Shown: piece after piece, positions 29,458 to 53,491 of the stretch
Layout: each line of letters begins with the position of its first letter
How positions within the stretch are numbered: position 1 is the stretch's first letter
Notes under the pieces: generated by a model
The model's input: the letters and a program-made list of their open reading frames with translations, nothing else
Told to the model about the DNA's origin: nothing
Databases searched by the model: none
Position numbers and translations under genes: made by a program
From: Deltaproteobacteria bacterium
GTDB lineage: Bacteria; Desulfobacterota; Desulfuromonadia; Desulfuromonadales; Geopsychrobacteraceae
NCBI GenBank assembly: GCA_024276905.1
Contig: JAJRWF010000148.1
Span: 9,821-73,820, forward strand
Direction of reading: 5' to 3'
Length of the DNA stretch: 64,000 nucleotides

Positions 29458-29476
29458 ATAACGCTTACATTGTGCT

Positions 29477-29684: not shown

Positions 29685-29771
29685 GTGGTCAATTATCGAC
29701 CTTCCCTCTTTCGCCTGATTGCTCAAACCTCTATACTCGTATCTTCAAAATAACGCTATTTAGGAGTTTTT

Positions 29772-31256: not shown

Positions 31257-31289
31257 AGAAGAGGGCCGGGAAAATCCCGGCCCTCTTCT
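31257..31289 (-). terminator. terminator closing the megacytochrome operon / peptide copy 2
   Basis: AGAAGAGGGCCGGG-AAAA-TCCCGGCCCTCTTCT. On the minus strand it is followed by a T-rich stretch (GTTTTCC). The core GGCCGGGA..TCCCGGCC is shared with the 29419 terminator. Confidence 0.75.
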
Positions 31290-31296
31290 TTGTGTA

Positions 31297-31353
31297 TCAG
31301 CAGGGATGAACGTTACTGCTCCCTACTATCCGTGGTTTGACATACCTTTTCAT
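31297..31353 (-). CDS. 18-aa peptide MKRYVKPRIVGSSNVHPC (copy 2), last cistron of the cytochrome operon
   Basis: GAGGAG precedes the ATG at 31353, 20 nt after the stop (31374) of the 2330-aa gene. The last 8 codons plus stop are identical to copy 1. Confidence 0.55.
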   Translation of the reverse strand: MKRYVKPRIVGSSNVHPC

Positions 31354-31373
31354 CTTATTCTCCTCACGTAAGC

Positions 31374-34300
31374 CTACCATGGGGTAACCGTGTTCCAACC
31401 TTTACCGTCCATATCTCCCAAGCCATCACCACCGCGGCCCAATTCGCCGACAGCACCGACACGGTGACAGTTCTGCGAAGTCGACCAGTTAGAAGCGCGC
31501 CAGCCGTCAGAACGAGACGGCGTCTGAGTGGAGGTGTCAGTATCCGCAGACATCCCTGTTGCATCGTCCCAACTGTTATGTTGGGTGTCGAGGCAGTTGG
31601 TAATCATCAGCTTCGGCAACCGCGATGCATGCGGATTATGACACTTGGAGCAGGTGAACTGATGGTACTGATTCACCAATTGCGGACTGGGATTGCCAGG
31701 GTTAGCACTCTGATCACCAGCCGCCATAATGAAGCCCCACTCAAACCAGTTATTTTTGTACGGCTCGGGCTCTTTGAAGCCATGCGAGGGTGCATAAGCT
31801 GGTGTGTAACTACCATCATCCCGATAACCATATCCCTCAGGACGATCGTAGTTGGCTCCGTCGCCACCGGAATGGCCCATTTCGATAGTATAACCTTTAG
31901 AATTTATCTCATTGGCACTACGATCCAGGATATCGGTCGCATTGCCGCTGGCTGTTCCGGTACCACCAATAACGGCGTTGGCGTGACCATTGGTTCCGAC
32001 CCACATGTTATCTCCGGTCGGCGCATAGTCCATGGTATTTACACTGGTTCCATGACACAGGGTACACAATCCAGCTATTTCACCGACGGTATCATAAGCG
32101 GTATTAGAGCTGACCGGATAGGTTCCGACACCCTGAGCCGTCATATTCTGGTCAATCCAGTACCCGCCTTTGGCCTGACTGGACGCGTTAAAGAAATCTT
32201 CACTGATACTGCCACGCGGAACCCGGTTGTAGTTGGTCGTCGTTTCAAAGGTCGTGGAGCCACTCAAGTTCTGCGGTGCACCATCCTCAAAGTAGGGATT
32301 GCCGAACCAGCTACCGCGCAGGTAAGGCTTACCGGTCATCGTATCACTCGTCGCTTGATTCCGGTTATGTACGTCATGACAATAACTGCAGCGAATCTTG
32401 GCCACCGCATCCGGACTCTCAGTGCGTCCGTAAGCCGCCCCTGTCACGGCACTGCTACCGGCCGCATTAACCGTGTGCGTTGACTGGATGGCTGCTTCCT
32501 TGTATGTGAAGTTCGCACTCTGCCAGGTACCGACCAACCAGTTCGAGTTACCGGTACTCATCTGACCGAAATTATAGTCAGGATAAGCCCCGTTGGTATC
32601 AGTATTGAGACCCCACTCACTGATGCCATTGATATCATGACATGTCCAGCAGATTTCAGCCTCTGTGGTTTTTGCACCCGTTGCGGTTCCACCCAACCAG
32701 ATACCGCCATGGGTCGTGTAGTTGATTCCAACCGTAGTGTTGTTGGCAACCTGGACATCGCCACTATGGAAACCATGACACTTCTGGCACTGCAATGACC
32801 AGTCGGTGGTTCCATTCACAACATCTGCAGTCACAGCCTTCAGGTGAGAACCGTAAAGCTCGCCAGTAAAGCCACTGTTCCCGGCCGGGTAAACAACTGT
32901 CGGCCCGGTGCCACCAGGTGCATGGCAAAGATCGCAGCTACCGCCGCCGAAGTCACCGAACCCGACACCCCAACTCGAATCAGCCAGGTTATGACTGGTC
33001 GATGCGCCACCGTGACAAGCATTGTCGCAGCCCCAGTTGGTGGAGTTGTAACCGGCACCGGTACTCGGCGTCGGCCCATTCATGGTGATCAGACCGTTAC
33101 CATGGTCTCCGGTCCCCCAGGTTGCGGTGTAGTTAGCGTTGGTTGCGCCCGGTGCAAAGCCGTGGCAGGTTTCGCACTCAGCATGGTTGGCCTGCACTTC
33201 GGGAGTGCCATCGGTATCCCAGTCATTGGCATGGTTGACCAGAACATTAGCGCGCCAGCTACCCCAGATCCCGTGACAGGTTTTACACTCATCTCCGGCA
33301 GCACCGCCGCCCGAGGCCCAAGTCTTGTTATTCAGGCGTGCCCAGGGAGTACTGACGCCACGACTGGCGTCAAGGCCTTCCTTATGGCAGGACATGGCAC
33401 AGGTATCAAGGTCTGAACTGGTTCCAAGGGTTATCCCGGCAACAAAGTCGGTCACAGCAGGGCGATTCATGGCACTGGACGCCAGACCTGTGTCACTGAA
33501 GTGGTTCGCCGGTTGGCCATTATGGCAGGAGGTACAGGCGACACTGGAACCATGATTCTGACCACTGACGACACCAGTGATGCCGTGCATACCACTGGTC
33601 GCGCTGTTGTATTCGGTCGCGACACTTTCCGCCTTGTGGCAGCTGGTACACTGCGTATTGGCGTCAATGGTACCGGTCCAGGCCGGGGTGATCTGGCCGC
33701 CGTGGCAGCTGATGTTGCTGCACTGGGTTGTGTATGCCGGAGTCCCGGCTGACAAATCATCGTAGGTGGCAGCGACACTGACCTGCACCGTGCCGTCAGC
33801 ATGGGTGTTGCCAGTATGGCAATAATCACATTTGGCCTGGACCGCAGTACCGTTATTCACCTGGGTTGAAAGTGAAACACCGAGGGCCGTAAAGTGCGCA
33901 TTGTGTGCGCCTGTAGAAGGCCATGGCTCTCCGGCACCGTTGTTGTGACAGCTTGCGCAGCCATTACTCAATGCTCCGCCCCAGGTCGGTGTGCTGGTGA
34001 AGTGACAATAGACGTTGGAACAGTTACCGTACACAGCACTGGGCGCCAGACCACCGGTATTACCGGTCGTTGTCCCAGCATAAGTTGCACTACCGGCAGC
34101 ATTGGTCGGCAAAGCGCTGACGTCCCATTGTACGTTACCGTTCATATGACCAGCCGCACCGGCAGTCGCACCGTGGCACTGGTTACAGGCCAGAGCCAGC
34201 GTACCGGCATGCGTCGCATGGCTGCTGGTACTCGGCGGAGTCACTGCGGTGGCTCCGTGGCAATCACCACAAACAACTGCGGCATCCCAGACCGGGCCGC

Positions 34301-37300
34301 TGCCTCCGATAGATCCACCATGACAGTAAACAGCAGCGCAGGTTTTTGTCCCATCACCTGCAACACTCCCGTTATTGTAGTTAACCCCGGTTTGACCAGA
34401 GTACGTTCCGGTAACAGAAGTGCCTCCACCACCGGCACTGAAATCGGCGTTGAAGTGGATATCAATATCGCCGCCGTTAGGCATCGCATTACCATTGTGG
34501 CAGGTATTGCAATCTGTATAGCCCTGAACATTGACGTGAGCATCATGGGCACCAGGGGTTACGCTGCCCGTAACTACCGGACTCCAGGCCAGACCAGTCT
34601 GGGTACTACCATCTGCATCGGCTGTAGTCGGCGGGTTGCCGTGACACGCGTCGCAAGCGGTCGGCTTGAAGCCCTGCTTGTGATTGTGACAGTTCATGCA
34701 ATCGGTGCTCAATTGGTGGTTCTGGTTGGTCGCCGTCGCGGCACTCATATCAAAAGCGTGGTGCTGTACCCCGTTGACCCGAGTTTCGTCCAGGGAGTGA
34801 CAGACTTCGCAGACACCGGAGCTTGCAGTATGTCCGCCGACAGCATCACCATAGTCACTTGTGGTGTCGCGAGTATCCGTCAAGGTGACGGCACTGGAGA
34901 TGGCACCGTTAGGCATGGTACTGCCATCGGGAAAGCTGATCGTCTGTCTGATCCGCTTGATATTGGTTGTTGTATCTACGTGACAGGTATCGCAGGTGAA
35001 TTCGCCATATTTGGCCCCTGCCAGACCCCAGCCACCCAGTGAATTCCACTTGCTGGAACCAGTCGCCGCCGAGTTATGCAACATTGAGTTGCTCGGCACC
35101 TGATCGGTGAAGATCTGAACCGCGTTACCGGTAACCCCATCGACAGCGTCAATGTAGGTGACACGCACCTGGTAAACCTGACCGTTAGTCAGCCCGGGAA
35201 TACTGTAACCATAGGGGCTGGCGGCATGGGCAATAACACCCGAGGTATTGGGGAAGGAGGTACTGTCGCAGTTGGTGAGCGACGGACAGGTTCCCCATTC
35301 AACGGTCAGGGTGTTGTCCGTATTGAAGTCACCACTGTACGGTGCACTGATATCGACCGACTTGTTTTTACTTGCGACCTGGACCACACCGGCTGCGGTA
35401 TCGAGAGCGTTATTAACCGAAATACTGTTACTGGTCGGACCAACAACTGAACCGCCGCAGTCAGGATCAGTACCGGTCACCTCAAAAGTTACCACCTGCG
35501 GACCAGTGGTGCCAAAGGCAGTGCTGTCCCAGGGGCTGGTGACCGTAGCACCGTTAATTTTGTAAGTGAAGCCCGTAGCATTCCCGGGAGCAGGGATGCT
35601 GAACAGAGTGGTCAGATCAACCGTACTGCCGCCAACAGTCTGCGACGGCGGAATAACAATTGACGAGGGGGTCGCGTCAGTACAGGTATTATCAATTGAA
35701 ACCGCTGTGATCTGCGGGGCAGAGACAGCATCACTACAATCGGGGTCACTACCATTAACATCGATAGTGATGTTGTTTTCAACCGCGGCAGTACCGCAGG
35801 CACTGGTATCCCAACTGTATTCCCAACGCGTGGTGCCAGCGTTCCAGGTCATGGCGGCGGCAGCAACATTACATGCGCTACTGCCAGCGACCGACACCTG
35901 CATTCCGCTCATGGTCGCCGGTGTTGTTTCCACACCGACCGCGGTCTGCAGAGTTACAACTCCGGTAGCAGGGTTGGGGTCACTGGTGGTCAGGGTCGCC
36001 AGGTCCTTGTCTGTGGTGTCAAAGGCTGTAGCAGCCGTCTGGGCATTCAGTATACCGCAGTCACCGGTTCCCTGGGCACGGAAGATGACGTTACCCGTAA
36101 TACAGGAAGTCGGAGTGTAGGTCGAACCATTAGCAACCCAGGCGCTCCAGCTCGTGCCGCCATCTTCGCTCCAGCTGACCTGGATTCCAGTAGCGGTGCC
36201 ACCAGCAGTCACGGTTACTGCACCAGTAATCGGCGTGGTACTCGGGGCTATGACTGGAGCAGTCAGGGTTGATGTTTCGGTACATGAACTCCAGGTAAAG
36301 CTCTGACTGGTACCCGGAAGAGCAGTACCGCCGACATAGTAAACTGTTCCACATTCAGGATCAGTTCCACGCGCGTAGAGATTGTAGCTGTTGCCCGTGG
36401 TTAAAACTGCAGTCGCTTCTTGCGGATCAAGGTTCCAGGCCAGGCGCTCTACTTCTGAGGATCGGGGTGTTCCAGTAAACGCAAGGTTGTCAAAAGAGAT
36501 GTCATTCTGATAGCCGGAGGCCGTTCCAACGACATAGCGGAAGCGCAGTTTAAAATCTGCGTTGGTATAGGCACTCAGGTCAATCGGGCCCTCGGAATAC
36601 CACTGAGCACCACCATCGCCAAGACGCACCATCCCATTAGCGACAACATATACATCCGCCACCCAACTGGTGCCGTTCCATGCGTCAAGGTGCAGCTCTG
36701 CATCTGCGTTAGTGCCACCGAGATCCATCATATAATCAAAATTGAAAGTAAGCGAATACTGACTTGCATCCTTAACGTTACTTTCCAGATACTGTGAACT
36801 TCCTGTGGTCGTGCCAGTCGCACAAGCATTCTGTCCGTTGGCAGACGCCTCAAGGTAAATCCAAGGACGTGGATTGCCAGCAACGGTTCCAGTGCCGCCG
36901 GAAGCTGTCCCGTTTGCATTATCCGCATAGCACCACGAATTAGTTCCATCACTCCCATTCACACCAATCCAGTTTGTCCAGCCGGTCTGAGCGGTATAGA
37001 GCGTTAAATCACCACCTGATGCTGCTGAAAAATCGTCAGTCTGAGGTGTAAACGGCGGGGCAAAACTACCTTCCGTCACCCGAAATTCCAGACTGGTCAA
37101 GTCAACCGGAGTAACAAAACTGGACCCAGTAAAATCACCTGCTGCGGAGGTCGTCCCGTTGAAGCTGATGGAAGATGGCGTTAGTTCGGTACAAGTCGGA
37201 GTTGTTACATTAGCCGTATTGGAATCAGCGCTGTCACAGGCGCCAGCAGTATTGTGCCCACGGACTGTATAGGAATAAGTGGTCCCAGCCGCTGCAGTTG

Positions 37301-38366
37301 CATCTGTATAAGAACCAACCGTTATGTTAGTCGCTATTTGCGCACCATCACGAAAAATCGTGTAATAATCGTTATTTGTCCCATCATAGGTCCAGGTCAG
37401 ATTGACCTGAGTAGAAGATGGTGCGTTGGCTGCTAAATCAGAGGGAGCAGTCGCTACACAGGGTGGCGTCTCAACGCAAGGAACAGCATTGGTGTAGGTA
37501 TCGTCTCGCTTCAACGTACGCTGAACCCGATCATTAATGTTATTGGCCTGCCATTTGACGAAACCCCAGTCTCCGTTGGCAATTCCGGCACCGGCAAAAT
37601 CTGCCGGAAAGGAAAACTGCCAGGTGGTACCAGTCTGAGTCACGTTAGTTGAAGCCGTCACATCAACCTTGGTTCCAAAATAATCGTTCAGTTCAACTTT
37701 TTTCAACTGGTTGTCTGAATTCGTAACAGTGACAGTTGCGTACACAGTGTCGCCATTCCCGAAAGTATCGGTCTGATTTGTCCGCGCGGCATCACTGTAA
37801 AACCACATTCCAGTTGCTGGAGAACCAAGCTGAACAAAACCACCAGCTTTATAATTGCCGTTATTGGCGTCCGAAACTTCAACCGCATAAAAATCGACGT
37901 TTGCGCCGCCGGTATTCCAACTGTAGCTATAGGTGTAGAATCCCCCTGTATGACCCGTTTCGGTCATAGCGACTTTGTCGAGAATTTTATTCTTCAGTGA
38001 GTCATCAACTTTCAATTCAAAAGCATCACGGTTGGCAGTAGGCACCTTGAAGGAAATCACGACCGTGTCTCCAACAGTGAACGCAATGCCAGCGGTCCCA
38101 CCGACGCTAGTCGTAAGCTGCTCACCGCTGCCGAGAGTAAAATCACCCGTCGACTGACAAACTGCAGCGAAGAGACTGCCGGCCGAAAGCATTACCGCCA
38201 AAACGGCCACCAAAGCCAGGTGTGCAAATCTGAACATCGGGGGGGTCCTCCAGATTCCATCCTTCATAGCCGTCCTCACCTCATTCCCAGTCACTTTATT
38301 CCCAATTAGATCATTCACTTGTCGATTACATGTGCCAAAGAAAACTTCCCGTAGTCGTTTCATCAT
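31374..38366 (-). CDS. 2330-aa chimeric surface protein: heme-free Ig/FN3/MAM-like N-terminal half plus C-terminal multiheme cytochrome (about 19 CxxCH and 5 CX3-4CH)
   Basis: Signal-like MFRFAHLALVAVLAVMLSAGSLFAA begins at residue 44 (alternative starts 38267 and 38237). FN3-like PSDLAANAPSSTQVNLTW...YSYTVRGHN. MAM/ConA-like ...FKLRFRYVVGTASGYQNDISFDNLAF. The first heme motif, CDTCH, appears only at about residue 1120. Confidence 0.9.
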   Translation of the reverse strand: MMKRLREVFFGTCNRQVNDLIGNKVTGNEVRTAMKDGIWRTPPMFRFAHLALVAVLAVMLSAGSLFAAVCQSTGDFTLGSGEQLTTSVGGTAGIAFTVGDTVVISFKVPTANRDAFELKVDDSLKNKILDKVAMTETGHTGGFYTYSYSWNTGGANVDFYAVEVSDANNGNYKAGGFVQLGSPATGMWFYSDAARTNQTDTFGNGDTVYATVTVTNSDNQLKKVELNDYFGTKVDVTASTNVTQTGTTWQFSFPADFAGAGIANGDWGFVKWQANNINDRVQRTLKRDDTYTNAVPCVETPPCVATAPSDLAANAPSSTQVNLTWTYDGTNNDYYTIFRDGAQIATNITVGSYTDATAAAGTTYSYTVRGHNTAGACDSADSNTANVTTPTCTELTPSSISFNGTTSAAGDFTGSSFVTPVDLTSLEFRVTEGSFAPPFTPQTDDFSAASGGDLTLYTAQTGWTNWIGVNGSDGTNSWCYADNANGTASGGTGTVAGNPRPWIYLEASANGQNACATGTTTGSSQYLESNVKDASQYSLTFNFDYMMDLGGTNADAELHLDAWNGTSWVADVYVVANGMVRLGDGGAQWYSEGPIDLSAYTNADFKLRFRYVVGTASGYQNDISFDNLAFTGTPRSSEVERLAWNLDPQEATAVLTTGNSYNLYARGTDPECGTVYYVGGTALPGTSQSFTWSSCTETSTLTAPVIAPSTTPITGAVTVTAGGTATGIQVSWSEDGGTSWSAWVANGSTYTPTSCITGNVIFRAQGTGDCGILNAQTAATAFDTTDKDLATLTTSDPNPATGVVTLQTAVGVETTPATMSGMQVSVAGSSACNVAAAAMTWNAGTTRWEYSWDTSACGTAAVENNITIDVNGSDPDCSDAVSAPQITAVSIDNTCTDATPSSIVIPPSQTVGGSTVDLTTLFSIPAPGNATGFTYKINGATVTSPWDSTAFGTTGPQVVTFEVTGTDPDCGGSVVGPTSNSISVNNALDTAAGVVQVASKNKSVDISAPYSGDFNTDNTLTVEWGTCPSLTNCDSTSFPNTSGVIAHAASPYGYSIPGLTNGQVYQVRVTYIDAVDGVTGNAVQIFTDQVPSNSMLHNSAATGSSKWNSLGGWGLAGAKYGEFTCDTCHVDTTTNIKRIRQTISFPDGSTMPNGAISSAVTLTDTRDTTSDYGDAVGGHTASSGVCEVCHSLDETRVNGVQHHAFDMSAATATNQNHQLSTDCMNCHNHKQGFKPTACDACHGNPPTTADADGSTQTGLAWSPVVTGSVTPGAHDAHVNVQGYTDCNTCHNGNAMPNGGDIDIHFNADFSAGGGGTSVTGTYSGQTGVNYNNGSVAGDGTKTCAAVYCHGGSIGGSGPVWDAAVVCGDCHGATAVTPPSTSSHATHAGTLALACNQCHGATAGAAGHMNGNVQWDVSALPTNAAGSATYAGTTTGNTGGLAPSAVYGNCSNVYCHFTSTPTWGGALSNGCASCHNNGAGEPWPSTGAHNAHFTALGVSLSTQVNNGTAVQAKCDYCHTGNTHADGTVQVSVAATYDDLSAGTPAYTTQCSNISCHGGQITPAWTGTIDANTQCTSCHKAESVATEYNSATSGMHGITGVVSGQNHGSSVACTSCHNGQPANHFSDTGLASSAMNRPAVTDFVAGITLGTSSDLDTCAMSCHKEGLDASRGVSTPWARLNNKTWASGGGAAGDECKTCHGIWGSWRANVLVNHANDWDTDGTPEVQANHAECETCHGFAPGATNANYTATWGTGDHGNGLITMNGPTPSTGAGYNSTNWGCDNACHGGASTSHNLADSSWGVGFGDFGGGSCDLCHAPGGTGPTVVYPAGNSGFTGELYGSHLKAVTADVVNGTTDWSLQCQKCHGFHSGDVQVANNTTVGINYTTHGGIWLGGTATGAKTTEAEICWTCHDINGISEWGLNTDTNGAYPDYNFGQMSTGNSNWLVGTWQSANFTYKEAAIQSTHTVNAAGSSAVTGAAYGRTESPDAVAKIRCSYCHDVHNRNQATSDTMTGKPYLRGSWFGNPYFEDGAPQNLSGSTTFETTTNYNRVPRGSISEDFFNASSQAKGGYWIDQNMTAQGVGTYPVSSNTAYDTVGEIAGLCTLCHGTSVNTMDYAPTGDNMWVGTNGHANAVIGGTGTASGNATDILDRSANEINSKGYTIEMGHSGGDGANYDRPEGYGYRDDGSYTPAYAPSHGFKEPEPYKNNWFEWGFIMAAGDQSANPGNPSPQLVNQYHQFTCSKCHNPHASRLPKLMITNCLDTQHNSWDDATGMSADTDTSTQTPSRSDGWRASNWSTSQNCHRVGAVGELGRGGDGLGDMDGKGWNTVTPW

Positions 38367-38393
38367 CTGTAATCCTCCTGGCGGGAAGTCGCC

Positions 38394-38425
38394 GCCAACC
38401 GGGGAGTCGAAGCCCTCCGGTTGGC
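38394..38425 (-). other. stable intercistronic hairpin between the two giant cytochrome genes
   Basis: GCCAACCGGGG-10 nt-CCTCCGGTTGGC (11 bp including one G-U). No T-run. It sits between the stop at 38477 and the AGGAGG/ATG at 38366. Confidence 0.5.
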
Positions 38426-38476
38426 ATTTTGGCTGATCTTCCCAAGTTGATTCAAGTTGCGCATCAAACTTGCTCC

Positions 38477-41400
38477 TTACTTGGGAAGCTGGGTATGGCA
38501 GAGGTCACAAGAGGCCCCCGCAGTACCCCAGGTTGCGGTATTGCCGTTATGGCAGGTCACCGTACAATTCTTGGTTGCACCGGTCCACATGGTCGCCGTA
38601 TTGAGGGCAACACCTTGATCGTGCGACGTGGTGCCCGCCTTGTAGCCGTTGGTCCGCGTCCAGTTGTTGTTCAACTCAGGCTCACCCGGGGTGAAATCCC
38701 GTACCTGGGCTTTGGACCTTAGCGGATTAACCGGAGCAAAGGTGACATCCCTGGTTCCGTTGACATGGAACGACTTATCAAGATCAGCCTGAACAATGAC
38801 TGTCTTGTCAGTCGCCACACCTGCGGTCCCATGACAGCTGACGCATGCCGTGTTGTTGCCGTTGAACCACTGACTGACGGTGCTGTTGTGGCAGACCGCA
38901 CAGGTAATGGTCAGCGCGGTAGTCACGTCACCATGACCGGCTCCACTGGCTCCCGCCTCGTTAAGCTTGGCATTGGTGCCATCGTAGATGTCATCACTGT
39001 GGATACCGATAACATGTTTCGGGTGGCTGCCCGTCAGCGGCTGATTGCCATGACAGTTCTGGCAGTAGTCGCCATTCGGATTAGTGAAAGTCCCCGTCAA
39101 GAAGTCGGGGCTGTTGCCAGGCGTGACACCATCACCATGACAGTAGACCGCCGAGCAGGTTCCGCCGGAATAAGCTGCGGTTGCACCATTCTGACCCTTG
39201 ATACTGCTCGGAGCATCAGTCGGGTCAAGAATCAGATCAAGGACTCCGTTCTGGTGATTGCTGGCATTCGCCGGGTGACAGAGGGCGCAACCAAAGTCGT
39301 AATCTGTCGCCGTAGAATGATCCACAGTGTCGCCATAGCTGCTGGCTGCCGACAGGACATGCTTGCCATGAGCGCCAGTCCGGGCGTTGAAAGTGTAGGT
39401 GCCGACGGTATTGAGATTATTACTGCCGCCAGTTGCCAGGTGGCAGGCGTTACAATCTGCCGCCGGACCAGCAAGACCGTTGGCCGGGAAGTGGGCCGAG
39501 GTTCCAAGGGTATGCGGGGCATCGTTGATATGGCAGATATTTGTACAGTTTCCGTTGGCCATGTCATAGCCGACCGAATCATTCAGTTCGACGGCGTGTC
39601 CCGGTGCGGAAAGTTCTGTCGGGGTACCGAGAGTCGAATTGGTGTCGTGATAGGTCGCCACATCATATGGCGCATTCGGCCGAACATGACAGGTCGCGCA
39701 GTTACTGTGCGTGCCGTCATTGATTGCTGTTTTGGTGCTGTGGTCCGGTGTCATCCCGGTCCGCCAGTTATTGAGATAACCGTGACAAACGTTACAGCGC
39801 GGATCGCCAACCGTATTGGAAACCGAATCGGCATCCTTGCTCCAAAGACGCTGCCAATTCCCAGCATCGCTGTGACAGCTGGAAGCACAGGAATCGCTGG
39901 TGCCGACGGCCGCCTGGGTGAATACGGTGATATTACCGCTGGCGCTGATACCACGATCATTATTGACCGCTGAATCAGTGGCGAAAGTGCCGTTGATATG
40001 GGTAGAACCAGCCGTATTTCCTATCACTGGCATACTGTTGTGACATTCGACACAACCGGTACCAAGAGTCGCGTCATGAACCTGGACCTCAGTCGGGTTG
40101 TTGACCACAGTGTGCAATCCGGTAGTCGGGTTGGCACCAGCAACACCTGGTGAATGACACATGGTACAGGTGCTGGCTCCGGCATCAGCCCAACCGAAGG
40201 TCCCGGTACCTGTGACTTTACTGTTGTGACAATCGATATTAGAGCAACTGCCCGCAGCAAAAGCAGCGTCGCTGTCAAGCGCGCCCCAGAGGCTCTTGGC
40301 GTGACGGATATTATCTTTATCAACAAAGACTTCGGCCGGCAGATTAGCCGTCGAACCATGATCACTGTCGTTCGTATTCGCTGCATGACAGTACTCACAG
40401 AGAGCCTTCTGATCAGAATCAGCAGTCGTACGGTTGAGCACTGCTGCGGCGCTGACACCGTAGACCCGCTGCGCGAGAACGTTCATATGTGTGAGGTGAC
40501 GTCCGGCATCGTCCGGTCCGGCTGCGCCGTCGTTGCCGTCCGGCCAGTAATTGCTGGCATTGGTGCCGACAGTGCCGCCACCGTGACAACCGTTACAACC
40601 GCTGGGTTTAAAGATCGGCGTGCTGGTATGGCTGTGACAGGTGGTGCATATCTGACCAGCGTTATGGGTTGCCAGTTCCTCAGTGGTGCGGTTGAAGTGC
40701 AGAACTTCGGTCGCATCGTGGCAAACCTGACAGACACCGTTGTTGGCTGCATTTCCGTAGCTGGCCCGCAGCGTACGATCCGTAAAGCCACTGACCGGGT
40801 GTGCCTGGATGGTTGACGCAATCATCGCATCCTGGTTGCCATTCTGACCATGCTGATCGTGACAGGTGACACAGATCAATGCATCATCAGAAGTGCCGCC
40901 GGCGGTCTGGGTATTGCCAAAGTGTGCCGCCGAGTTAGGAACGCCGGTGTGGCAGGCGTTACAGAAACCATTCGGATCAACATTGTAATCCTTGGTAGCG
41001 ATAGTATTCAGCCGGTTGGTGGTGTATCCGATATGGTCACCGGCATGATTGTGACAATCGACGCAAGCCTTGGCAACACCGGCCTTGCCGTGACCACTGT
41101 TGTCATAAGCCGTTCCGGCACGAACTGGTGCTAGAGCACCGTTGACATTTGCTTGATTGTAATCACCGTGACAGGTTTCACAAGCGACCGGCCCACCGGC
41201 ACTCCAGACCGCCTTGGCACCAATAGTGGCAAGATTCACCGCCGTGGTTCCACCATGACAGGTATCGCAAACCGTCACCGTGGCATCTCCGGCGATAGCG
41301 CCTGTTGCCAGTTCTTGTGCACCGGCAAAGCTGATCGTACCGTTTATGTGGGTTGCCTGACCGGCCATACTGACATTACCGGCATTAGCGGCGTGGCAGA

Positions 41401-46726: not shown

Positions 46727-46786
46727 CAGACTCTCCCGGAGGCAAAAAACCCCAGATACTCGACTGTGTATCTCAATTAAACGGAC

Positions 46787-47542
46787 TTACTTAATATGGC
46801 ACGACAGGCACATGGCACTGCCCGTATTCGGCATAGCAAGAAACGGATCGTATGTCGGATCAGCAATATAATCAACATGCGGGTCATGACAGGTGCCGCA
46901 CTCAAGACGGTCTGTCCCGCCGAAAAAGTGCAGATCCGAGTTCACAGAAGCAACATCAACAAACTCAGCCGGCTTTTCTGCCTGCACTGCTGAATAACTG
47001 AAAGAAATCGGATGGTCATCACTCAGATCAGCGGTATCTGCAATATTCACGCGGGTTGCACCTATGCGCGCCGTTCCCTGAATGAAGTTCAGTGCCGTAT
47101 CGGGCGTCCCATTTGATGCATTGATCAAATCACCGACCGCGATACTGCCATCGTGGCAGGAAAGACAGAGCAGCGATTCGGTATTGACCGCACGATTACT
47201 GATTCCCTTGAGGTAAGTCGAAAGCGTCGAGCTGTCATAGTGGGTATAGGCTTTCCCTGTCAAGGATGACAGGTTACGGTTCCACAGGGGGGTGTTCAAC
47301 TCACCGCCGTGCGGGGTATGACAAAAGACACAGATACGGTCTTCGACGCCCTCGAGATAAGCTCCAGGAACGCCGAGCCACGCCGGATTCGCCGGATTGG
47401 TACTGGGACCCGACGTAGAAAGGTTGTGGACAGTGGAATATACGTTACTGGCACCACGTGCATATGCATTTCCCGTGCACAAAACGCCCACCACCAAGCA
47501 CAGAAGCAACACCCTGAACGGTACTTTTTCAAACATTGTCAA
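46787..47542 (-). CDS. tetraheme c-type cytochrome (paired-CXXCH type)
   Basis: CVFCHTPHG, CLSCH, CGTCH, CLSCH. Signal peptide present. Track start 47542 is a TTG, and an ATG lies at 47536. Confidence 0.9.
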   Translation of the reverse strand: MTMFEKVPFRVLLLCLVVGVLCTGNAYARGASNVYSTVHNLSTSGPSTNPANPAWLGVPGAYLEGVEDRICVFCHTPHGGELNTPLWNRNLSSLTGKAYTHYDSSTLSTYLKGISNRAVNTESLLCLSCHDGSIAVGDLINASNGTPDTALNFIQGTARIGATRVNIADTADLSDDHPISFSYSAVQAEKPAEFVDVASVNSDLHFFGGTDRLECGTCHDPHVDYIADPTYDPFLAMPNTGSAMCLSCHIK

Positions 47543-47584
47543 GACCCTTTCTTGACTGAAAAATAAACATCCGCTAATTATAGA

Positions 47585-50383
47585 TCAATTCAAAATATTG
47601 GCAAGTTCATTTACGGCAACTGCTGCCGGGCTGCCCGCACCAAGCAGGGCAGCGAGTTGTTCGGCTTTTTTCTGGGCCGAAACATACTTGGCACGCCCGA
47701 CACGACTGGCGATATTGGCCACCCGACCAATCAGGCCCGGAGCCTGCGCCAAGACTTGCTGCTCGACATCTGCAAGCTTGGTCAGCAATGCCTGTTTATA
47801 GGCCGGAGCAAAACCGCCCTGCTGACCGTTTGCGACGACAAGCGAACCACTTGTGGTCCCGAAAACCAGATCATTATAGTTGCTGCCTGCAAAGTTCAAG
47901 ACAAAAACACTGCTGGCTCCGGTGATGCTCACGCCGGTGGGCAGCAGTGAAGCGACCTGACCGCTACTCATAACGGCCTCAAACAGTTCCCCCTGAATGA
48001 GCAACATCAATTCGCGGACACCATCGGCGTCCCAGTCGGTGAAAAGAGGGACCGCAGGCGCGGTCAAAACACCGATCGTAACCTGAGAATTCAGCAGCGG
48101 CGAAGCATCATCTCCAACGTTATCAAAAAGCAGAAGATCGTTACCGGAACCGACAATCAGATCCTTGTCGCCATCATTATCCAGATCAGCAACTGCCGGA
48201 AAAGCTTGCGATCCGACCGTAACCAGCCATTGGCCAACAGTGGAAAAGAAGTTGGGGCTTGCATCACCGAGGAAAAGCTTGACCGAACCATCAGCCCCGC
48301 CGACCAAGAGGTCAAGCCGGTCGTCATTGTTCCAGTCAACCAGGCAGGGGGCTGCACCCGCAATCTGAGCCAACGGGAGTTGCTGACCAGCGGCCGCAAA
48401 GACAACCCGATTCGGGGTGGAACTCGACCCGGTCATTTTACCCGCAGTCAGATCTTCAATCGTGTCATTACTTTGTGGGTTCTGGATCGAAGCGCCCGGA
48501 TAGAATTTGATATAGCCATTGTCAGCCAGAAGCAGATCAAGGATACCGTCCCGGTCAAGATCAGCAACCACCGGTGCGATATCAGTACCCGATATCGCCT
48601 GCCCTGCCAGGTTCAGATCGTGAGTGGCAAACCCGCTCGCGATACGCGCCCCGGACAGATCGGCAACGACGTCGACAGAACCATTCTGTGCAAGTGCAAC
48701 CGTTACGACATAAGGCTCAAACCCAGCGGCTTCGACAACGATTGAATAGCTTCCTTCAGTCAAATCACGTATCTCGACCGGAGCAATTCCCAGGGCACGG
48801 CCTGCATAGCCATGGTGACCGCTGAGATAAACCCTGGAACCCGCGACACTGGAGGATACCCTGAGGACTGAAGGCTGATAAATGAAATTACCGCTGTTGG
48901 TCGATACAGTTTCAAGCGCAGTATTATCAATCGCAACAACCTGCCAATTATAACTGTTTCCTGGAGTCAGTCCGGACGAAAGGCTGGCAACCGCAGCGCT
49001 GGTACCGGTATAGACACCACTTGCAAGCGGTGCCCCCCCGGCAGAGATTTCGACACGGTAACTGAGAGCAAAGTTGGGGTCGGGATCGCTCGACGCAGTC
49101 CAGCTCAGCACGTCAGCCCCTCCGGCAGCCCCGCCGGCCAGAAATGTCGTCAGGACGGGCGCCGCGGGAGCTTCCTCGACAGCGTTGATGTCAATGGGGG
49201 TTGCCGCAGACCAGCTCGATGTCAGCAGACCATCGTCAGCCTGAACCTGCCAAGTATAACTGGCATTTTCCACCAAAGTAACATTGACGGTAGCCAGGGT
49301 CGGATTTGCTCCCTCGGCAACACTGAATGCGGCGACTGAAACACCGCCAGCATCAAGCACGCGCACATTGTAAGTCAGGGGGTTATTTTCAGCATCACTG
49401 GCATTGTTGAATTGCAGTACGGGAGTTGCACTGGCTACTTCACCGAATGTTACCGGCACCGGAACACTCGGCGGTGTATTGGCCTGAACGGGAGTCGACC
49501 CGCCATCAACACCGTAAACATCCACACGGTTACCCGCCCAAATCACAAAAAGACGGTTGGTCAGTCTGTCGTAGGCCATCGAGGCAGGACGGTTGATCGT
49601 CCCGTTGTCAAAGGTCCCCAACAAGGTCGAGGGAAGCGCCATGACTCGGATATTGCCAGACTCAGAATCTCCTACATAGAGCCGGTTGGCACCATCAAAT
49701 GCCAACCCGCCGAAAAACTGGAGCCGGGTACCGAAAGCAGTCGCTGCATCAAACTGACTTTTGAATGTATAGTCTGAATGAAAAACATAAAGCTGGGGGG
49801 TCTGGGTCCCCTCAAAAACCGGGTCTGCAACATAGATGTCACCCAGCGCCGGATCGACCCCGATATTGGAAATACCGCCAAAATTAACCCCCGCCAGCAA
49901 ATTCACACCGCCAGCAGCCGGGAAAATCTTGACCTGCCGCGTACTGGTGTCGGAGCAAAGGACATCACCATTCGCTCCAATGGCAATAACACCCGCATCC
50001 TGAAATTCACCGGCGCCACTGCCAAGGTAGCCCTGCAATGCCCCGTTGGCATTCAGCACCGCAACCTTGTCGCCTGCCGAAGCGTAAATCGCACTACCAT
50101 CTGCTGCGACCGCCAGTCCAAGGCCCGAAATCGTCACAGCGTTAAAACTGGCCACGCGGGTACCGAACTTATCGAACTTGACGATATTTTTGCCGCCGGT
50201 ATTGGCCACGTAGAGATTGCCCGCATCGTCCACGGCAACCCGACTGGGCCGGAACAAACCATCGGTTATCTGGCCCAAAGGCTGGATCACTGGCATGGCA
50301 GCGTAGGCGGAGCCTTGCCATATCACTCCAAATAACAGCGATATCACCGCAAGCAGGCAGATATTGATGCAGGACCGGGTCAT
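47585..50383 (-). CDS. secreted NHL-repeat beta-propeller / Ig-like / PEGA / FG-GAP(VCBS)-repeat protein
   Basis: GGAGG lies 8 nt before the ATG at 50383 (MTRSCINICLLAVISLLFGVIWQGSAYA); the track ORF extends to 50566. NHL-like RPSRVAVDDAGNLYVANTGG. PEGA-like SYSIVVEAAGFEPYVV. FG-GAP-like DLDRDGILDLL, DWNNDDRLDLLVGG, DLDNDGDKDLIVG. Confidence 0.85.
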   Translation of the reverse strand: MTRSCINICLLAVISLLFGVIWQGSAYAAMPVIQPLGQITDGLFRPSRVAVDDAGNLYVANTGGKNIVKFDKFGTRVASFNAVTISGLGLAVAADGSAIYASAGDKVAVLNANGALQGYLGSGAGEFQDAGVIAIGANGDVLCSDTSTRQVKIFPAAGGVNLLAGVNFGGISNIGVDPALGDIYVADPVFEGTQTPQLYVFHSDYTFKSQFDAATAFGTRLQFFGGLAFDGANRLYVGDSESGNIRVMALPSTLLGTFDNGTINRPASMAYDRLTNRLFVIWAGNRVDVYGVDGGSTPVQANTPPSVPVPVTFGEVASATPVLQFNNASDAENNPLTYNVRVLDAGGVSVAAFSVAEGANPTLATVNVTLVENASYTWQVQADDGLLTSSWSAATPIDINAVEEAPAAPVLTTFLAGGAAGGADVLSWTASSDPDPNFALSYRVEISAGGAPLASGVYTGTSAAVASLSSGLTPGNSYNWQVVAIDNTALETVSTNSGNFIYQPSVLRVSSSVAGSRVYLSGHHGYAGRALGIAPVEIRDLTEGSYSIVVEAAGFEPYVVTVALAQNGSVDVVADLSGARIASGFATHDLNLAGQAISGTDIAPVVADLDRDGILDLLLADNGYIKFYPGASIQNPQSNDTIEDLTAGKMTGSSSTPNRVVFAAAGQQLPLAQIAGAAPCLVDWNNDDRLDLLVGGADGSVKLFLGDASPNFFSTVGQWLVTVGSQAFPAVADLDNDGDKDLIVGSGNDLLLFDNVGDDASPLLNSQVTIGVLTAPAVPLFTDWDADGVRELMLLIQGELFEAVMSSGQVASLLPTGVSITGASSVFVLNFAGSNYNDLVFGTTSGSLVVANGQQGGFAPAYKQALLTKLADVEQQVLAQAPGLIGRVANIASRVGRAKYVSAQKKAEQLAALLGAGSPAAVAVNELANILN

Positions 50384-50466
50384 AGTGATGCCTCCTGAAA
50401 ATAAGAGTCGCGGGCCATCTGAGGCCCCTGGCGCTCCAAGTGTCTGGTTTCCTGCATGCGTTGGAT

Positions 50467-50482
50467 TGCAAAGATGATACCA
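50467..50482 (-). promoter_or_regulatory. sigma-54 -24/-12 promoter of the megacytochrome operon
   Basis: The minus strand reads TGGTAT-CATCT-TTGCA with exact consensus spacing (GG..N10..GC). It lies 84 nt upstream of the ATG at 50383 and directly downstream of the sigma-54 activator gene. Confidence 0.6.
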
Positions 50483-50522
50483 GTCACAAAAAAAGCCAAA
50501 CTCCAGCACATCACAGACAAAT

Positions 50523-50557
50523 AAGTGGCCGCTGAAATGCTGAAACAGCGGCCACTT
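50523..50557 (-). terminator. 12-bp perfect hairpin after the activator gene (terminator and/or activator-binding palindrome)
   Basis: AAGTGGCCGCTG-11 nt-CAGCGGCCACTT, located between the stop at 50594 and the -24/-12 element. The downstream T-run is weak. Confidence 0.45.
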
Positions 50558-50593
50558 GGGGAACATCCGAGAGCAAATTAAAATTGGGGGGAG

Positions 50594-51964
50594 CTATAAA
50601 AACTTGAACTTTTTCATCCGGTAGCGGAATGCGTCAATTCCAAGATTCAGTTTTTTCGCGGCCTTCGATTGGTTACCGTCTGAAGACTCCAGGGCCTGTC
50701 TGATCAGTTCACGCTCAACATCCTCAATATCGATCCCCTCCGGCGGCAATGCAAACACAAGAGGGCTGCCGCCTGCCGGGACTGCACGCGATACCAGTTC
50801 ACGCGGCAGATGTTCGGCCTCCATCATCTCATCATCCTCAAGGATCACGGCTCGTTCAATAACGTTGCGCAGTTCACGAATATTTCCCGGCCAATCATAT
50901 TCAGTGAGAATTTTCTCGGCGGCCTGCGATATTCCTCGAACATTCTTCCCGAATTCCTTGTTGAAGTTTTCGATAAAGCTTTGTGCAAGCACCAGAATAT
51001 CGCCGCGCCGCTCACGTAGCGGCGGCAGGAAAATCGGGATGACCTGTAAACGGTAGTACAGATCATTACGAAAGATTGTTTCTTCGATCGCCTGCAGCAG
51101 ATCGCGGTTTGTCGCTGAAACGATTCGGATATCGACATGAATATCCCGGGTTCCGCCAACACGGCGGAAAGTCCGATCTTCAAGGACTCGCAACAGTTTC
51201 GCCTGAATCGGCATCGGCATGTCGCCGATTTCATCAAGAAATACCGTGCCGCCATTCGCCATCTCAAAGAGGCCCTTTTTCTGGCTTTTGGCGTCAGTAA
51301 AGGCGCCTTTTTCATGTCCCATCAACTCACTTTCAAGCAGAGTTTCCGGCACTGCGGCACAGTTGATCGCCATAAAGGGCTTGTCAGCACGGCCACTTTC
51401 ATAATGAAGGGCCTTGGCGATCAACTCCTTACCGGTACCACTCTCACCCTGAATCAGTACGGTTCCGGCATCGCTCTGGGCAATCTTACGCACCATACTC
51501 AGCACATGCTGCAAATCACTGCTGGCACCGATAATACTGTCGATACTGAAACGCTTGGGCTGAACGGCTCGCAGGTGCGCGACCTCGCGTTTAAGTTCGC
51601 GGGTCTCAAGGGCCTTCTTGATGACAATTGCCAGTTCGTCAAGATTGAACGGCTTATTTATATAGTCGTAGGCACCAAGACGCATCGCCTTGACCGCAGT
51701 TTCAAGCACACCCAGGGCGGTGACCATGATCACGATCACTTCATCTTCGAGGTCCTTGACTTTTTCGAGAACCTCCATGCCATTCATCCCCGGCAACTGA
51801 ATATCGAGCAGCATCAGATCGGGCGGATCTTCCTGCAACAGACGCAAGGCATCTTCTCCGGACCCTGCCGTACTGACCTCATAGCCCTGCTTCTTGAGGT
51901 TCTGCTCAAGCGACCAACGAATCAAATGCTCATCATCAACTACCAGGATCTTGCTCTTCGTCAC
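50594..51964 (-). CDS. sigma-54-dependent response regulator (NtrC family enhancer-binding protein)
   Basis: Receiver (ILVVDDEHLI...LLDIQLPGMNG), AAA+ domain (GESGTGKE, GAFTDA, ...RELRNVIERA) and a C-terminal Fis-type HTH. Confidence 0.95.
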   Translation of the reverse strand: MTKSKILVVDDEHLIRWSLEQNLKKQGYEVSTAGSGEDALRLLQEDPPDLMLLDIQLPGMNGMEVLEKVKDLEDEVIVIMVTALGVLETAVKAMRLGAYDYINKPFNLDELAIVIKKALETRELKREVAHLRAVQPKRFSIDSIIGASSDLQHVLSMVRKIAQSDAGTVLIQGESGTGKELIAKALHYESGRADKPFMAINCAAVPETLLESELMGHEKGAFTDAKSQKKGLFEMANGGTVFLDEIGDMPMPIQAKLLRVLEDRTFRRVGGTRDIHVDIRIVSATNRDLLQAIEETIFRNDLYYRLQVIPIFLPPLRERRGDILVLAQSFIENFNKEFGKNVRGISQAAEKILTEYDWPGNIRELRNVIERAVILEDDEMMEAEHLPRELVSRAVPAGGSPLVFALPPEGIDIEDVERELIRQALESSDGNQSKAAKKLNLGIDAFRYRMKKFKFL

Positions 51965-52012
51965 AATAGTGTCTCCTTATCCCAGCGCGGGAGAACTCCT
52001 CCCGAGGCTCGA

Positions 52013-53491
52013 CTATCCCCTGCCCGGCCGATCATTCAGCACCGGCAGCATCAGGGTGAATTGCGTCCCCTTGCCGAGCTCACTCTCAACTTCCAGACTT
52101 CCGCCATTATTCTCCATCAACTGCCGACAGATCGGCAGGCCAAGTCCTGTTCCTTGTGTTTTTGTGGTAAAAAACGGCGTAAATATTTTTGCCCGCACCT
52201 CAGCAGTCATCCCCGGCCCGGTGTCCGAGATACAAATCTGCACCCAGTCGTTTTTGTCGATATGGATACGATCTGTCTGGACCGTCAACATGCCGCCATC
52301 AGTCATTGCCTGCACGGCATTGAGGGCAATATTGAGCACGACCTGCTGGATCTGCTTGTGATCAATCCAGACCGGGGGCAAGTCACGGGTCAACTCATCG
52401 ACCCGATTGACCTTCTTGGACTCGGGGTGCTGAGCGACAAAGAGCAGGGTCTGCTTGAGCAGCTCGTTGATATCGGCAAAGGCAAATTCCGGCTTGCCGG
52501 GCTTGCCGAAATAGAGCAGATCATTGACGGTCTTATCAAGTCGCCCGATCTGTCCCTGAATCTGCAGCATGATTTCACGACGCTGATCACCTTCGGGGTA
52601 ATCATCAGAAAGGACATTAATCGCGCCACTGATACCGGCCAGAGGATTCTTGATTTCATGCGCCAGTCCGGCAGCCATCTCCCCGACCGAAGCAAGACGG
52701 TCAACCCGTTCCATCTGCTGGTAATGAAACCGCTCAAGTTCATTCTGTGCCGTTGAGAGATGATCGACCATCGAATTAAAGCCGGTCATCAACTGACCGA
52801 TCTCATCGTCCTGCAGCGGCTGCATCCGCACCGTCAGATCACCATCTTCGACCTGTGCCATGCATTGGGTGATCTTTTCCAGCGGTCGCCGCAGAAAGCG
52901 GATCATGACCACCGAGATACCGGCAGCCAGCGATCCAAGGATGACCAGAGTCGAAACGATAAACAACTGGCTGGTTTCACGCAACTGCAGGTACATCTCG
53001 GCCAGAGAAAAATTCATATTGAGCACACCGATGACCCGCCGCCCATTTCCATGGCAACGAAAACACCGCTCGTCCGAAATAATCGGCCGCACCATCGCCA
53101 GAACCCGGCCACCACCCTGATCCTGAATAACCCCTTCCGAAACCTTGTTTTTAAACAGGGCAAAGTCATGGACGCCGATACGTGTCCCGATTTCACTTGG
53201 ATTCGCCGACTTGAGGATAACCCCTTCCGGGCTGAAAATCCGCACCCCGAGCATACCGTGACCATGACCGACCGTCTCAAGAGTCGCCTGGACTTCAGAC
53301 GTGTTACCGAGCCGCATCGAATTAAAAATGGACTTTTCGATGGTCCCAAGCAACATGTTGGCGTGATGACGGGTGGTCGTAATCAGATGGGTCTGCTCAC
53401 GATAAAGATGAAACAAGGTGAAGATGCCGACACCGAGGGCAAGCAGCAGCACATTGAACAGAATGATGCGGCTGATCAGGCTTTTAAACAT
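52013..53491 (-). CDS. sensor histidine kinase with periplasmic CxxCH motif, HAMP, HisKA and HATPase domains
   Basis: Two TM helices flank a roughly 150-aa periplasmic loop containing CFRCH (53051..53065). HAMP domain, H-box GLAHEIKNPL, ATPase G-boxes (DTGPGM, GTGLGL). Confidence 0.9.
   Translation of the reverse strand: MFKSLISRIILFNVLLLALGVGIFTLFHLYREQTHLITTTRHHANMLLGTIEKSIFNSMRLGNTSEVQATLETVGHGHGMLGVRIFSPEGVILKSANPSEIGTRIGVHDFALFKNKVSEGVIQDQGGGRVLAMVRPIISDERCFRCHGNGRRVIGVLNMNFSLAEMYLQLRETSQLFIVSTLVILGSLAAGISVVMIRFLRRPLEKITQCMAQVEDGDLTVRMQPLQDDEIGQLMTGFNSMVDHLSTAQNELERFHYQQMERVDRLASVGEMAAGLAHEIKNPLAGISGAINVLSDDYPEGDQRREIMLQIQGQIGRLDKTVNDLLYFGKPGKPEFAFADINELLKQTLLFVAQHPESKKVNRVDELTRDLPPVWIDHKQIQQVVLNIALNAVQAMTDGGMLTVQTDRIHIDKNDWVQICISDTGPGMTAEVRAKIFTPFFTTKTQGTGLGLPICRQLMENNGGSLEVESELGKGTQFTLMLPVLNDRPGRG

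Follow-up and report, generated by a model that had tools for sequence, protein, structure and literature searches.

An OmcE-type cytochrome cluster with a 71-heme protein, a predicted sigma-54/two-component switch, and a micropeptide gene in Desulfuromonadales

The canonical omcE cluster of Geobacter and Desulfuromonas always comprises genes for two multiheme cytochromes, two beta-propeller lipoproteins, OmcE itself, and a large beta-barrel, and it sits between purHDE/resB/ccsB on one side and tRNA-modification/ffh genes on the other (bioRxiv 10.1101/2025.10.22.684050). Here, we describe a cluster of giant multiheme cytochromes on the minus strand of a 64,000-nucleotide stretch of DNA from a Deltaproteobacteria bacterium of the family Geopsychrobacteraceae (GenBank assembly GCA_024276905.1, contig JAJRWF010000148.1, positions 9,821 to 73,820; this whole stretch is referred to here as the window). 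Given that its tetraheme cytochrome belongs to the OmcE nanowire family, the omcE cluster is the closest known system. The two clusters occur in the same bacterial order and have in common an OmcE-family tetraheme cytochrome, a beta-propeller protein, and two multiheme cytochromes encoded side by side. The omcE cluster has a large beta-barrel gene, whereas none is found here, and instead of two propeller lipoproteins there is one protein with a Sec signal peptide and without a lipobox, in which NHL and FG-GAP repeats are fused. The ordinary multiheme cytochromes of the omcE cluster are expanded to 71 and 24 hemes. A heme-sensor kinase, a sigma-54 activator, and a sigma-54 promoter are present here and are not described for the omcE cluster in the same paper (bioRxiv 10.1101/2025.10.22.684050), and the cluster described here additionally has a micropeptide gene at its 3' end. 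The flanking genes (a murI-like racemase, GerMN, and nrdD/nrdG on one side; TPR, CarboxypepD_reg, a lone ResB-like gene, and DUF362 on the other) are not those of the purHDE/resB/ccsB...ffh neighborhood, placing the cluster at a different chromosomal locus.

Porin-cytochrome conduits (MtrCAB, PccF/OmbB-OmaB-OmcB, and Ext) also bring together multiheme cytochromes with a presumed role in outward electron transport, but they include a porin-like beta-barrel. No beta-barrel gene was found in 31257-54797, in the immediate flanks, or in the orthologous loci, and no lipoprotein cytochrome signature is present here, in line with a preliminary description of this DNA that had set it apart from the porin-cytochrome layout. 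A pentaheme selenoenzyme for sulfur respiration was also considered as a relative and is not related. The preliminary description had allowed that the same gene order might already be a named system; our literature searches turned up no such system, nor any account of this arrangement, of its regulation, or of OmcE-type clusters under the control of sigma-54. What is already known consists of passing genome mentions (PMC4914508, PMC7096707) of two proteins of Desulfuromonas soudanensis WTL, DSOUD_0664 and the adjacently numbered DSOUD_0663, a 69-heme cytochrome and an OmcE-like tetraheme protein. Based on their locus tags and the heme count, they are probably the orthologous pair, and the pairing seen here very probably exists in that species too. 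The cluster appears to be a novel form among OmcE-type extracellular electron-transfer clusters, without a beta-barrel and outside the canonical locus, and we consider it rather likely that it encodes an inducible apparatus of the outer surface, akin to the omcE nanowire systems, that serves as a heme wire and in attachment. Its features, in the order of transcription and in window coordinates, are as follows.

54120-54797, minus strand: 225-aa gene with a RomY N-terminal domain (NCBIfam NF053858)
53531-54133, minus strand: 200-aa conserved gene of no family, recognized by its conserved position
52013-53491, minus strand: sensor histidine kinase with a predicted periplasmic heme-c PAS-like sensor domain (Pfam, PDB, ortholog comparison)
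50594-51964, minus strand: NtrC-family sigma-54 activator with receiver, Sigma54_activat (AAA+), and Fis-type HTH_8 domains (Pfam)
50523-50557, minus strand: terminator-like hairpin closing the regulator genes (-22.6 kcal/mol, z -5.4)
50467-50482, minus strand: predicted sigma-54 -24/-12 promoter, TGGTAT-N5-TTGCA, TGGTATCATCTTTGCA (pattern match and conservation)
47585-50383, minus strand: predicted secreted 932-aa protein with a six-blade NHL propeller, an fn3/Ig-like domain, PEGA, and FG-GAP repeats (Pfam)
47577-47604, minus strand: candidate internal sigma-70-type promoter, TTGCCA-16-TATAAT (11 of 12 positions match)
46787-47536, minus strand: OmcE-family tetraheme cytochrome, 249 aa (four CXXCH motifs; PDB search)
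38477-46726, minus strand: 71-heme cytochrome, 2,749 aa, with a possible OmcE-like N-terminal module followed by c7-like triheme and MtrC-domain-like modules (motifs, TIGR01904, Pfam)
31374-38366, minus strand: 24-heme cytochrome, 2,330 aa (motif count, TIGR01904)
31297-31353, minus strand: micropeptide gene, copy 1, MKRYVKPRIVGSSNVHPC (18 codons; Shine-Dalgarno sequence GAGGAG)
31257-31289, both strands: bidirectional intrinsic terminator ending the operon (15-bp stem, 10 GC pairs, -31.4 kcal/mol, z -7.6)

We retrieved loci from the contigs of orthologs of the 71-heme protein and from a scan of one genome per species. The gene order recurs in 13 further loci; the cluster is conserved in cultured Desulfuromonadales and is not a one-off. 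Starting from the large cytochromes, we found the order small gene-small gene-kinase-activator-propeller-tetraheme-giant cytochrome-second giant cytochrome in Geopsychrobacter electrodiphilus (L001), in Geothermobacter hydrogeniphilus HR-1 (L003), and in five metagenome-assembled genomes (MAGs) of Desulfuromonadales (L006, L009, L010, L012, and L013), with L005 covering the part from the propeller gene to the second cytochrome. An independent sample drawn from the tetraheme side gave the same arrangement in five of five members (L094, L095, L097, L098, and L099), where L094 is the complete genome of Desulfuromonas sp. DDH964 and the contig of L097 stops just after the tetraheme gene. Throughout the loci examined, the order propeller-tetraheme-giant cytochrome is invariant. 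The cluster is conserved in marine and subsurface metal-reducing bacteria, and cultured or sequenced strains with orthologs include D. soudanensis WTL, Desulfuromonas sp. DDH964, G. electrodiphilus, and G. hydrogeniphilus. More distant arrangements also occur: a Nitrospirota MAG (L015, 6274-24481) carries tetraheme, propeller, and giant cytochrome genes, and two Acidobacteriota loci (L017 and L021) have an OmcE-like gene, encoding a protein of ∼497 aa, beside propeller and giant cytochrome genes, in all three cases without the kinase and the activator.

All elements of the preliminary description were found on the minus strand, among them a hairpin followed by an exactly spaced TGGTAT-N5-TTGCA element, cistrons lying 20 to 110 nt apart, a strong closing terminator, and about 100 heme motifs in about 19 kb. 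The hairpin behind the regulator genes is directly followed by the U-rich tail CUUAUUUGU, and hairpins occur at the equivalent place in L001, L003, L009, and L095. The promoter element TGGTATCATCTTTGCA is the sole match to TGGYAY-N5-TTGCW in the 64-kb window, which is not significant alone, since 0.35 matches are expected by chance. The main evidence is the phylogenetic footprint: TGG(T/C)AT-N5-TTGCA was found in all 10 loci with a readable activator-propeller spacer, at a distance of 91 to 134 nt from the propeller ATG in the eight loci measured and of ∼99 nt in L094. In these loci, the element is mostly preceded by a terminator hairpin, and the remaining spacer is not alignable. It is this conservation in other loci that makes the sigma-54 promoter convincing, and, with GG at -24 and GC at -12 at exact spacing, we take it to be real. 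Behind it, the five cistrons are separated by gaps of 48, 60, 110, and 20 nt, each is preceded by a ribosome-binding site (RBS), and together they encode 4 + 71 + 24 = 99 heme motifs within 19.2 kb. The bidirectional terminator is the only strong one in 31000-50700. A further hairpin at 38395-38424 (minus strand, -16.7 kcal/mol) lies in the 110-nt spacer between the giant cytochrome genes; it has no U-tract and is not a terminator, but could be an RNA-stability or processing element.

The protein that ties the cluster to nanowire biology is the tetraheme cytochrome. The preliminary description had recognized it as tetraheme, which its four CXXCH motifs bear out, but had missed its membership in the OmcE family. 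A search against PDB sequences gave just two matches, both of them OmcE filaments: 7TFS from Geobacter sulfurreducens (E value of 1.4e-21) and 9YUQ, the OmcE bundle from D. soudanensis (E value of 1e-19). Over the aligned region, the tetraheme protein is 34 to 40% identical to both solved subunits, which share 44% identity with each other. Its CXXCH motifs (C69, C124, C213, and C243) are invariant in 47 homologs, as are four further histidines, His37, His76, His175, and His220 (in HNLS, CHTPH, DHP, and CHDPH). Together, these make up the eight histidine positions for bis-His ligation of the hemes, all of which are conserved. The N-terminal histidine is not alignable to OmcE, of which residues 36 to 232 are visible in 7TFS. 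As in OmcE, the chain stops right after the last heme motif (...CLSCHIK, a CxxCHxK end). The OmcE-like family as a whole contains more than 6,000 proteins at an E value of ≤1e-10.

The neighboring 2,749-aa protein, earlier put at about 70 hemes, contains 57 CXXCH, 6 CX3CH, and 8 CX4CH motifs, giving a count of 71. It matches TIGR01904 (CxxxxCH/CxxCH domain) over 10 stretches with 156 bits (cutoff of 27), and Pfam finds Cytochrome_C7 eight times and MtrC/MtrF domain II-IV seven times. We recognized ∼13 triplets of CX3-4CH/CXXCH/CXXCH, a module pattern taken from motif spacing, as BLAST of the protein against itself gave no usable repeats. GSU1996-family c7 polymers of Geobacter, which also match TIGR01904, likewise string such triheme modules along one chain, but they have 12 to 27 hemes and are mostly periplasmic, whereas the protein described here has 71 hemes together with MtrC-domain-like modules and an apparently OmcE-like head. 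All nine full-length orthologs (39 to 65% identity) have 70 or 71 heme motifs, and all nine end in CHTQLPK (CHNQLPK in P0003). Since this number is kept down to 39% identity, we argue that selection maintains the complete set of hemes and that the whole heme chain is in use. The ∼190 N-terminal residues align with that part of the tetraheme family which holds the last three hemes (hhalign probability of 98.7%, E value of 2.3e-16), and in the PDB their profile finds 9YUQ (E value of 3.9e-6) and 7TFS (E value of 1e-4), a resemblance to the OmcE fold that is suggestive. For its part, DSOUD_0664 has 69 heme motifs and is predicted to be extracellular (PMC4914508). A 2019 review regarded the roles of proteins with ∼70 hemes as undetermined and their production with a full heme complement as unclear (PMC7096707).

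The 2,330-aa protein had been described as a ∼24-heme cytochrome fused to an adhesin. The first part agrees with our count of 24 heme motifs (19 CXXCH, 2 CX3CH, and 3 CX4CH), all within residues 1125 to 2239, and the protein scores 66.5 bits against TIGR01904 (cutoff of 27). The second part was an over-reading: the N-terminal half of ∼1,050 aa, free of heme motifs, has fn3 and MAM-like beta-sandwich modules and no recognizable adhesin. This half has no significant match among PDB sequences, and a Pfam scan gave a weak fn3 match alone. Among 5.8 billion proteins, 16 homologs of this half were detected, and the nearest of them carry Pfam MAM. An AlphaFold2 (AF2) model of residues 300 to 700, with a predicted local distance difference test (pLDDT) score of 68, matched fn3 structures with a TM-score (TMt) of up to 0.77 (3MPC) and MAM structures with a TMt of 0.51 to 0.57 (5L73, 0.57). 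The model thus points to beta-sandwich modules of a binding type, and an adhesin is an interpretation of these. In the orthologs, the heme half and a GWNxVTPW C terminus are kept, and the nonheme half varies from ∼720 to 1,850 residues. At its very N terminus, the protein has an extension of ∼67 residues (38166-38366; MKRLREVF...NEVRTAMKDGIWR...MFRFAHLALVAV) that is kept in Geopsychrobacter (L001) and Geothermobacter (L003) and that we read as an extended signal peptide. Because the extension is conserved in two genera and the gene has a strong RBS, CCAGGAGG, the start at 38366 stands and an alternative start at Met44 is ruled out.

The first gene of the string had been described as an NHL/PEGA/FG-GAP protein, and Pfam agrees, adding the fn3/Ig-like domain. 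Matches of the NHL propeller in the PDB cover residues 40 to 300 of the 932-aa protein. Its true start is the ATG at 50383, which is preceded by the RBS CAGGAGG and followed by a Sec signal peptide ending in AYA, without a lipobox. A longer reading frame of 993 aa, starting at 50566, is an upstream artifact that would span the promoter.

Upstream of the hairpin, the preliminary description had placed a sensor kinase with a periplasmic CFRCH motif and an NtrC-type activator, and both assignments hold up. The kinase has HAMP, HisKA, HATPase_c, and Mcp40H-20_sensor domains (Pfam), and its single CFRCH, at residue 143, lies between two predicted membrane helices. The sensor domain scores 29.2 bits against PF21563 (Mcp40H-20_sensor; cutoff of 27), and residues 43 to 168 match PDB 3B42, a heme-c PAS-like sensor domain from a chemoreceptor of Geobacter (E value of 1.5e-4). 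The CXXCH is kept in seven of seven orthologs checked, and the periplasmic domain is a predicted c-type heme binder. The sensors of GSU0582 and GSU0935 (3B42; PF21563) are likewise periplasmic domains of ∼125 residues with one CXXCH; there, however, the domain sits on a chemoreceptor, while here it sits on a HAMP-HisKA-HATPase kinase predicted to feed a sigma-54 activator. The activator matches Sigma54_activat with an E value of 7.6e-71 and contains GESGTGKE at residue 173 and GAFTDA at residue 220.

Two small genes precede the kinase. The 225-aa protein matches the RomY N-terminal domain (NF053858) with an E value of 4.5e-34 and 116.7 bits (cutoff of 50), and its homologs precede the kinase in L001, L003, L006, L009, L010, L012, and L013. 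The 200-aa gene, for which scans of Pfam and NCBIfam gave no match, shares 14 nt with it, and a gap of 39 nt then separates the 200-aa gene from that of the kinase; homologs lie at the same position in L001, L006, L010, L012, and L013. Since both are kept beside the kinase and the activator in most orthologous loci, the two genes may belong to the same regulatory operon.

The last cistron of the string, an 18-codon open reading frame (ORF), was already part of the preliminary description as the tail of the operon. It is present at 31297-31353, but it is not peculiar to this position, since a second copy lies 1.8 kb away, between a TPR gene and a CarboxypepD_reg-domain gene.

29477-29533, minus strand: micropeptide gene, copy 2, MKKYMKPKVVGSSNVHPC, with a Shine-Dalgarno sequence and a terminator (29425-29451) of its own (tblastn; hairpin of -20.7 kcal/mol, z -5.1)

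A peptide identical to that of copy 2 is encoded in L001 at 27531. The family has the consensus MKKYxKPxVVGSSNVHPC. By tblastn, we found eight copies in the window and related loci, which differ at synonymous third positions and are each equipped with a Shine-Dalgarno sequence and a separate terminator. In L005, L006, L011, and L012, copies lie directly 3' of giant cytochrome genes. A degenerate DNA pattern matches 69 metagenome loci, and a six-frame peptide pattern applied to the window and the fetched loci gave 66 copies, representing 63 nucleotide sequences and 32 peptides, with a Shine-Dalgarno sequence before 64 of the 66. Of these copies, 62 encode exactly 18 residues, and in them the entropies of the three codon positions are 0.24, 0.25, and 1.06; because the search pattern constrains codon positions 1 and 2 of codons 6 to 18, it is the eight copies from tblastn that provide unbiased evidence. 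The invariant residues are Y4, K6, P7, G11, S12, V15, H16, P17, and C18. In G. electrodiphilus, no such ORF lies behind the second cytochrome gene, which could suggest that the ORF is spurious, but this idea was overturned by tblastn and by the scan of metagenomes. Judged by this conservation, the ORF is a genuine, multicopy, widespread, and unannotated micropeptide family, i.e., a strongly conserved gene overlooked by gene callers and missing from family libraries.

The genomic contexts are of recurring types. In ∼20 loci, the micropeptide gene lies immediately 3' of a giant cytochrome gene; in 14 loci, it comes after a gene for an FG-GAP/ASPIC protein; in ∼15 loci, it is placed between an HD-domain gene and a Bax-inhibitor-like gene; and, as for copy 2, it also occurs upstream of genes for CarboxypepD_reg-domain proteins. 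The recurrent neighbors in the 69 loci are cytochromes and FG-GAP/ASPIC, HD, DjlA, BaxI, CarboxypepD_reg, and TPR proteins. A precursor of a ribosomally synthesized and posttranslationally modified peptide (RiPP) or of a cofactor, similar to PqqA or a lasso leader, was considered and set aside, as no maturase-type family (radical SAM, RiPP recognition element [RRE]/PqqD, cyclase, or protease) recurs beside the micropeptide in the 69 loci. The peptide has no match in Pfam or NCBIfam, a text search of the literature for SNVHPC gave no result, and Rfam over 29300-31500 gave only sub-threshold chance matches on the terminator hairpins. The product would be a small cytoplasmic peptide, ending in cysteine and histidine residues, that is made together with envelope redox proteins. 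Two genes near copy 2 also recur beside micropeptide copies in metagenome loci: one on the plus strand (27340-28269) for a lipoprotein of no known family, with a probable start near 27511 and the lipobox LFFTAC, and the CarboxypepD_reg-domain gene (28343-29374, minus strand). The lone ResB-like gene (26074-27387) follows these two.

In the mechanism that we propose, the regulon would consist of two transcription units. One would encode the two small conserved proteins, the membrane histidine kinase, and the NtrC-type activator and end at the hairpin; the other would be the 19.2-kb operon. The heme domain of the kinase would report the periplasmic redox state or a heme ligand, and the kinase would then phosphorylate the activator, which would open the sigma-54 promoter ∼99 nt before the propeller gene. 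After its apparently OmcE-like head, the 71-heme chain would continue as a string of triheme and pentaheme modules, and very long single-chain heme wires would stand in for the pair of ordinary multiheme cytochromes found in the canonical omcE cluster. For their export, the products would rely on machinery encoded elsewhere. The preliminary description had likewise proposed an electron-transfer and attachment apparatus under a two-component switch. The switch is well supported by the cross-genome comparison, with the promoter in 10 of 10 loci and the kinase CXXCH in 7 of 7 orthologs, and homology to OmcE, together with the fn3/MAM modules of the second giant cytochrome, makes a role in extracellular electron transfer plausible; the adhesin is the part that was over-read.

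Several observations weigh against this reading, some concerning the location of the products and others their regulation. When DSOUD_0663, the OmcE-like paralog, was modeled into the D. soudanensis filament map, it was rejected and DSOUD_2954 was preferred (bioRxiv 10.1101/2025.10.22.684050), so that polymerization has never been seen for this tetraheme subfamily. An AF2 model of the tetraheme protein (47 homologs, without hemes) reached a pLDDT of only 54 and gave no Foldseek match, as expected for a heme-dependent fold that is mostly coil. The N-terminal profile of the 71-heme protein scores MtrA, octaheme nitrite reductase, and ActA about equal to OmcE, and we therefore regard the OmcE-like head as no more than suggestive. 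Triheme modules of the c7-like kind typically occur in periplasmic proteins, and no porin, secretion, or anchoring gene was found within the cluster. In the main rival explanation, the giant cytochromes stay in the cell envelope as electron stores (capacitors) or periplasm-spanning wires and the OmcE-like protein is a nonpolymerizing redox partner in the periplasm or on the outer surface. Most of the 71-heme protein is c7-like, with 10 TIGR01904 stretches and 8 Cytochrome_C7 matches, modules that are periplasmic in polymers of the GSU1996 type, and the lack of a beta-barrel or secretion gene and the rejection of DSOUD_0663 as the filament subunit point the same way. However, both solved relatives of the tetraheme protein are extracellular filaments, the 24-heme cytochrome combines fn3/MAM modules with an extended signal peptide, DSOUD_0664 is predicted to be extracellular, and the 71-heme protein also contains MtrC-domain-like modules, which are typical of outer-surface cytochromes. 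We regard confinement to the envelope as unlikely.

As for regulation, the activator loop reads GAFTDA instead of the canonical GAFTGA. Since G(A/S)FTDA is present in seven of seven activator orthologs checked, the odd loop is probably a lineage trait and not a lesion, and its conservation suggests that the variant is functional. In the spacers upstream of the promoter, we found no shared k-mer, inverted repeat, activator-binding site, or IHF consensus, and rpoN is not among the genes of the 64-kb window. The sigma-70-like site 41 nt upstream of the tetraheme start raises the alternative that the activator mainly drives the propeller gene, with the tetraheme and giant cytochrome genes transcribed from this promoter (47604-47577). 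The site matches at 11 of 12 positions, and the region contains 23 sigma-70-like matches where 13.5 are expected. On the other hand, the equivalent spacers of eight orthologous loci do not contain this site, while all 10 loci checked have the sigma-54 element; there is no terminator at the junction of the propeller and tetraheme genes, and the order of propeller, tetraheme, and giant cytochrome genes does not vary. Split transcription is, in our estimation, distinctly unlikely. Least probable of all, to the point of being nearly negligible, is that the cluster is a copy of the known omcE cluster or of a porin-cytochrome conduit. Such a copy would have an OmcE homolog, a beta-propeller protein, and two multiheme cytochromes encoded next to one another, as is the case here, but the two defining features, the beta-barrel and the omcE flanks, are both missing, the single NHL and FG-GAP protein has no lipobox, the cytochromes carry 71 and 24 hemes, and a dedicated two-component system with a sigma-54 promoter is not described for omcE clusters in bioRxiv 10.1101/2025.10.22.684050.

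Within the outer-surface reading, one can go further and imagine a composite nanowire, a picture that in all its parts is a long shot and for which sequence resemblance is the support. OmcE-like subunits would stack head-to-tail, through the heme/His interface known from OmcE filaments, onto the apparently OmcE-like N-terminal module of the 71-heme protein, which would serve as a covalent heme cable of tens of nanometers at the base or tip of the filament. The fn3/MAM modules of the 24-heme cytochrome would fasten the assembly to a mineral, an electrode, or another cell, the periplasmic heme sensor would switch on production through sigma-54, and the invariant 18-residue peptide might be a new dedicated factor, acting as an assembly or regulatory peptide or as a small metal- or heme-binding cofactor. 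If true, this would settle a question posed in the filament paper, namely what makes up the tip or the starting point of OmcE wires, and it would give a first function to a protein with more than 70 hemes. Proteins with ∼70 hemes have been noted in genomes since 2016, and the cluster described here offers a concrete route to testing their role, as it is a conserved operon with a defined promoter, orthologs in cultured or sequenced strains, and a sensor and an activator of its own, through which expression might be forced. The OmcE family link connects these giant cytochromes to nanowire biology, in an OmcE-type cluster without the usual beta-barrel.

Two other loci in the window deserve mention. 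A cluster on the minus strand at 688-7110 encodes a CsgG-like secretion component (2970-3680) and a response regulator of the LuxR type (4292-4933), along with three signal-peptide proteins and a 723-aa protein, these four without family matches; it may be a curli-like secretion locus. On the plus strand, 23452-24612 encodes a GGDEF diguanylate cyclase fused to a C-terminal PilZ domain, adjoining a gene for an MscS-type channel.

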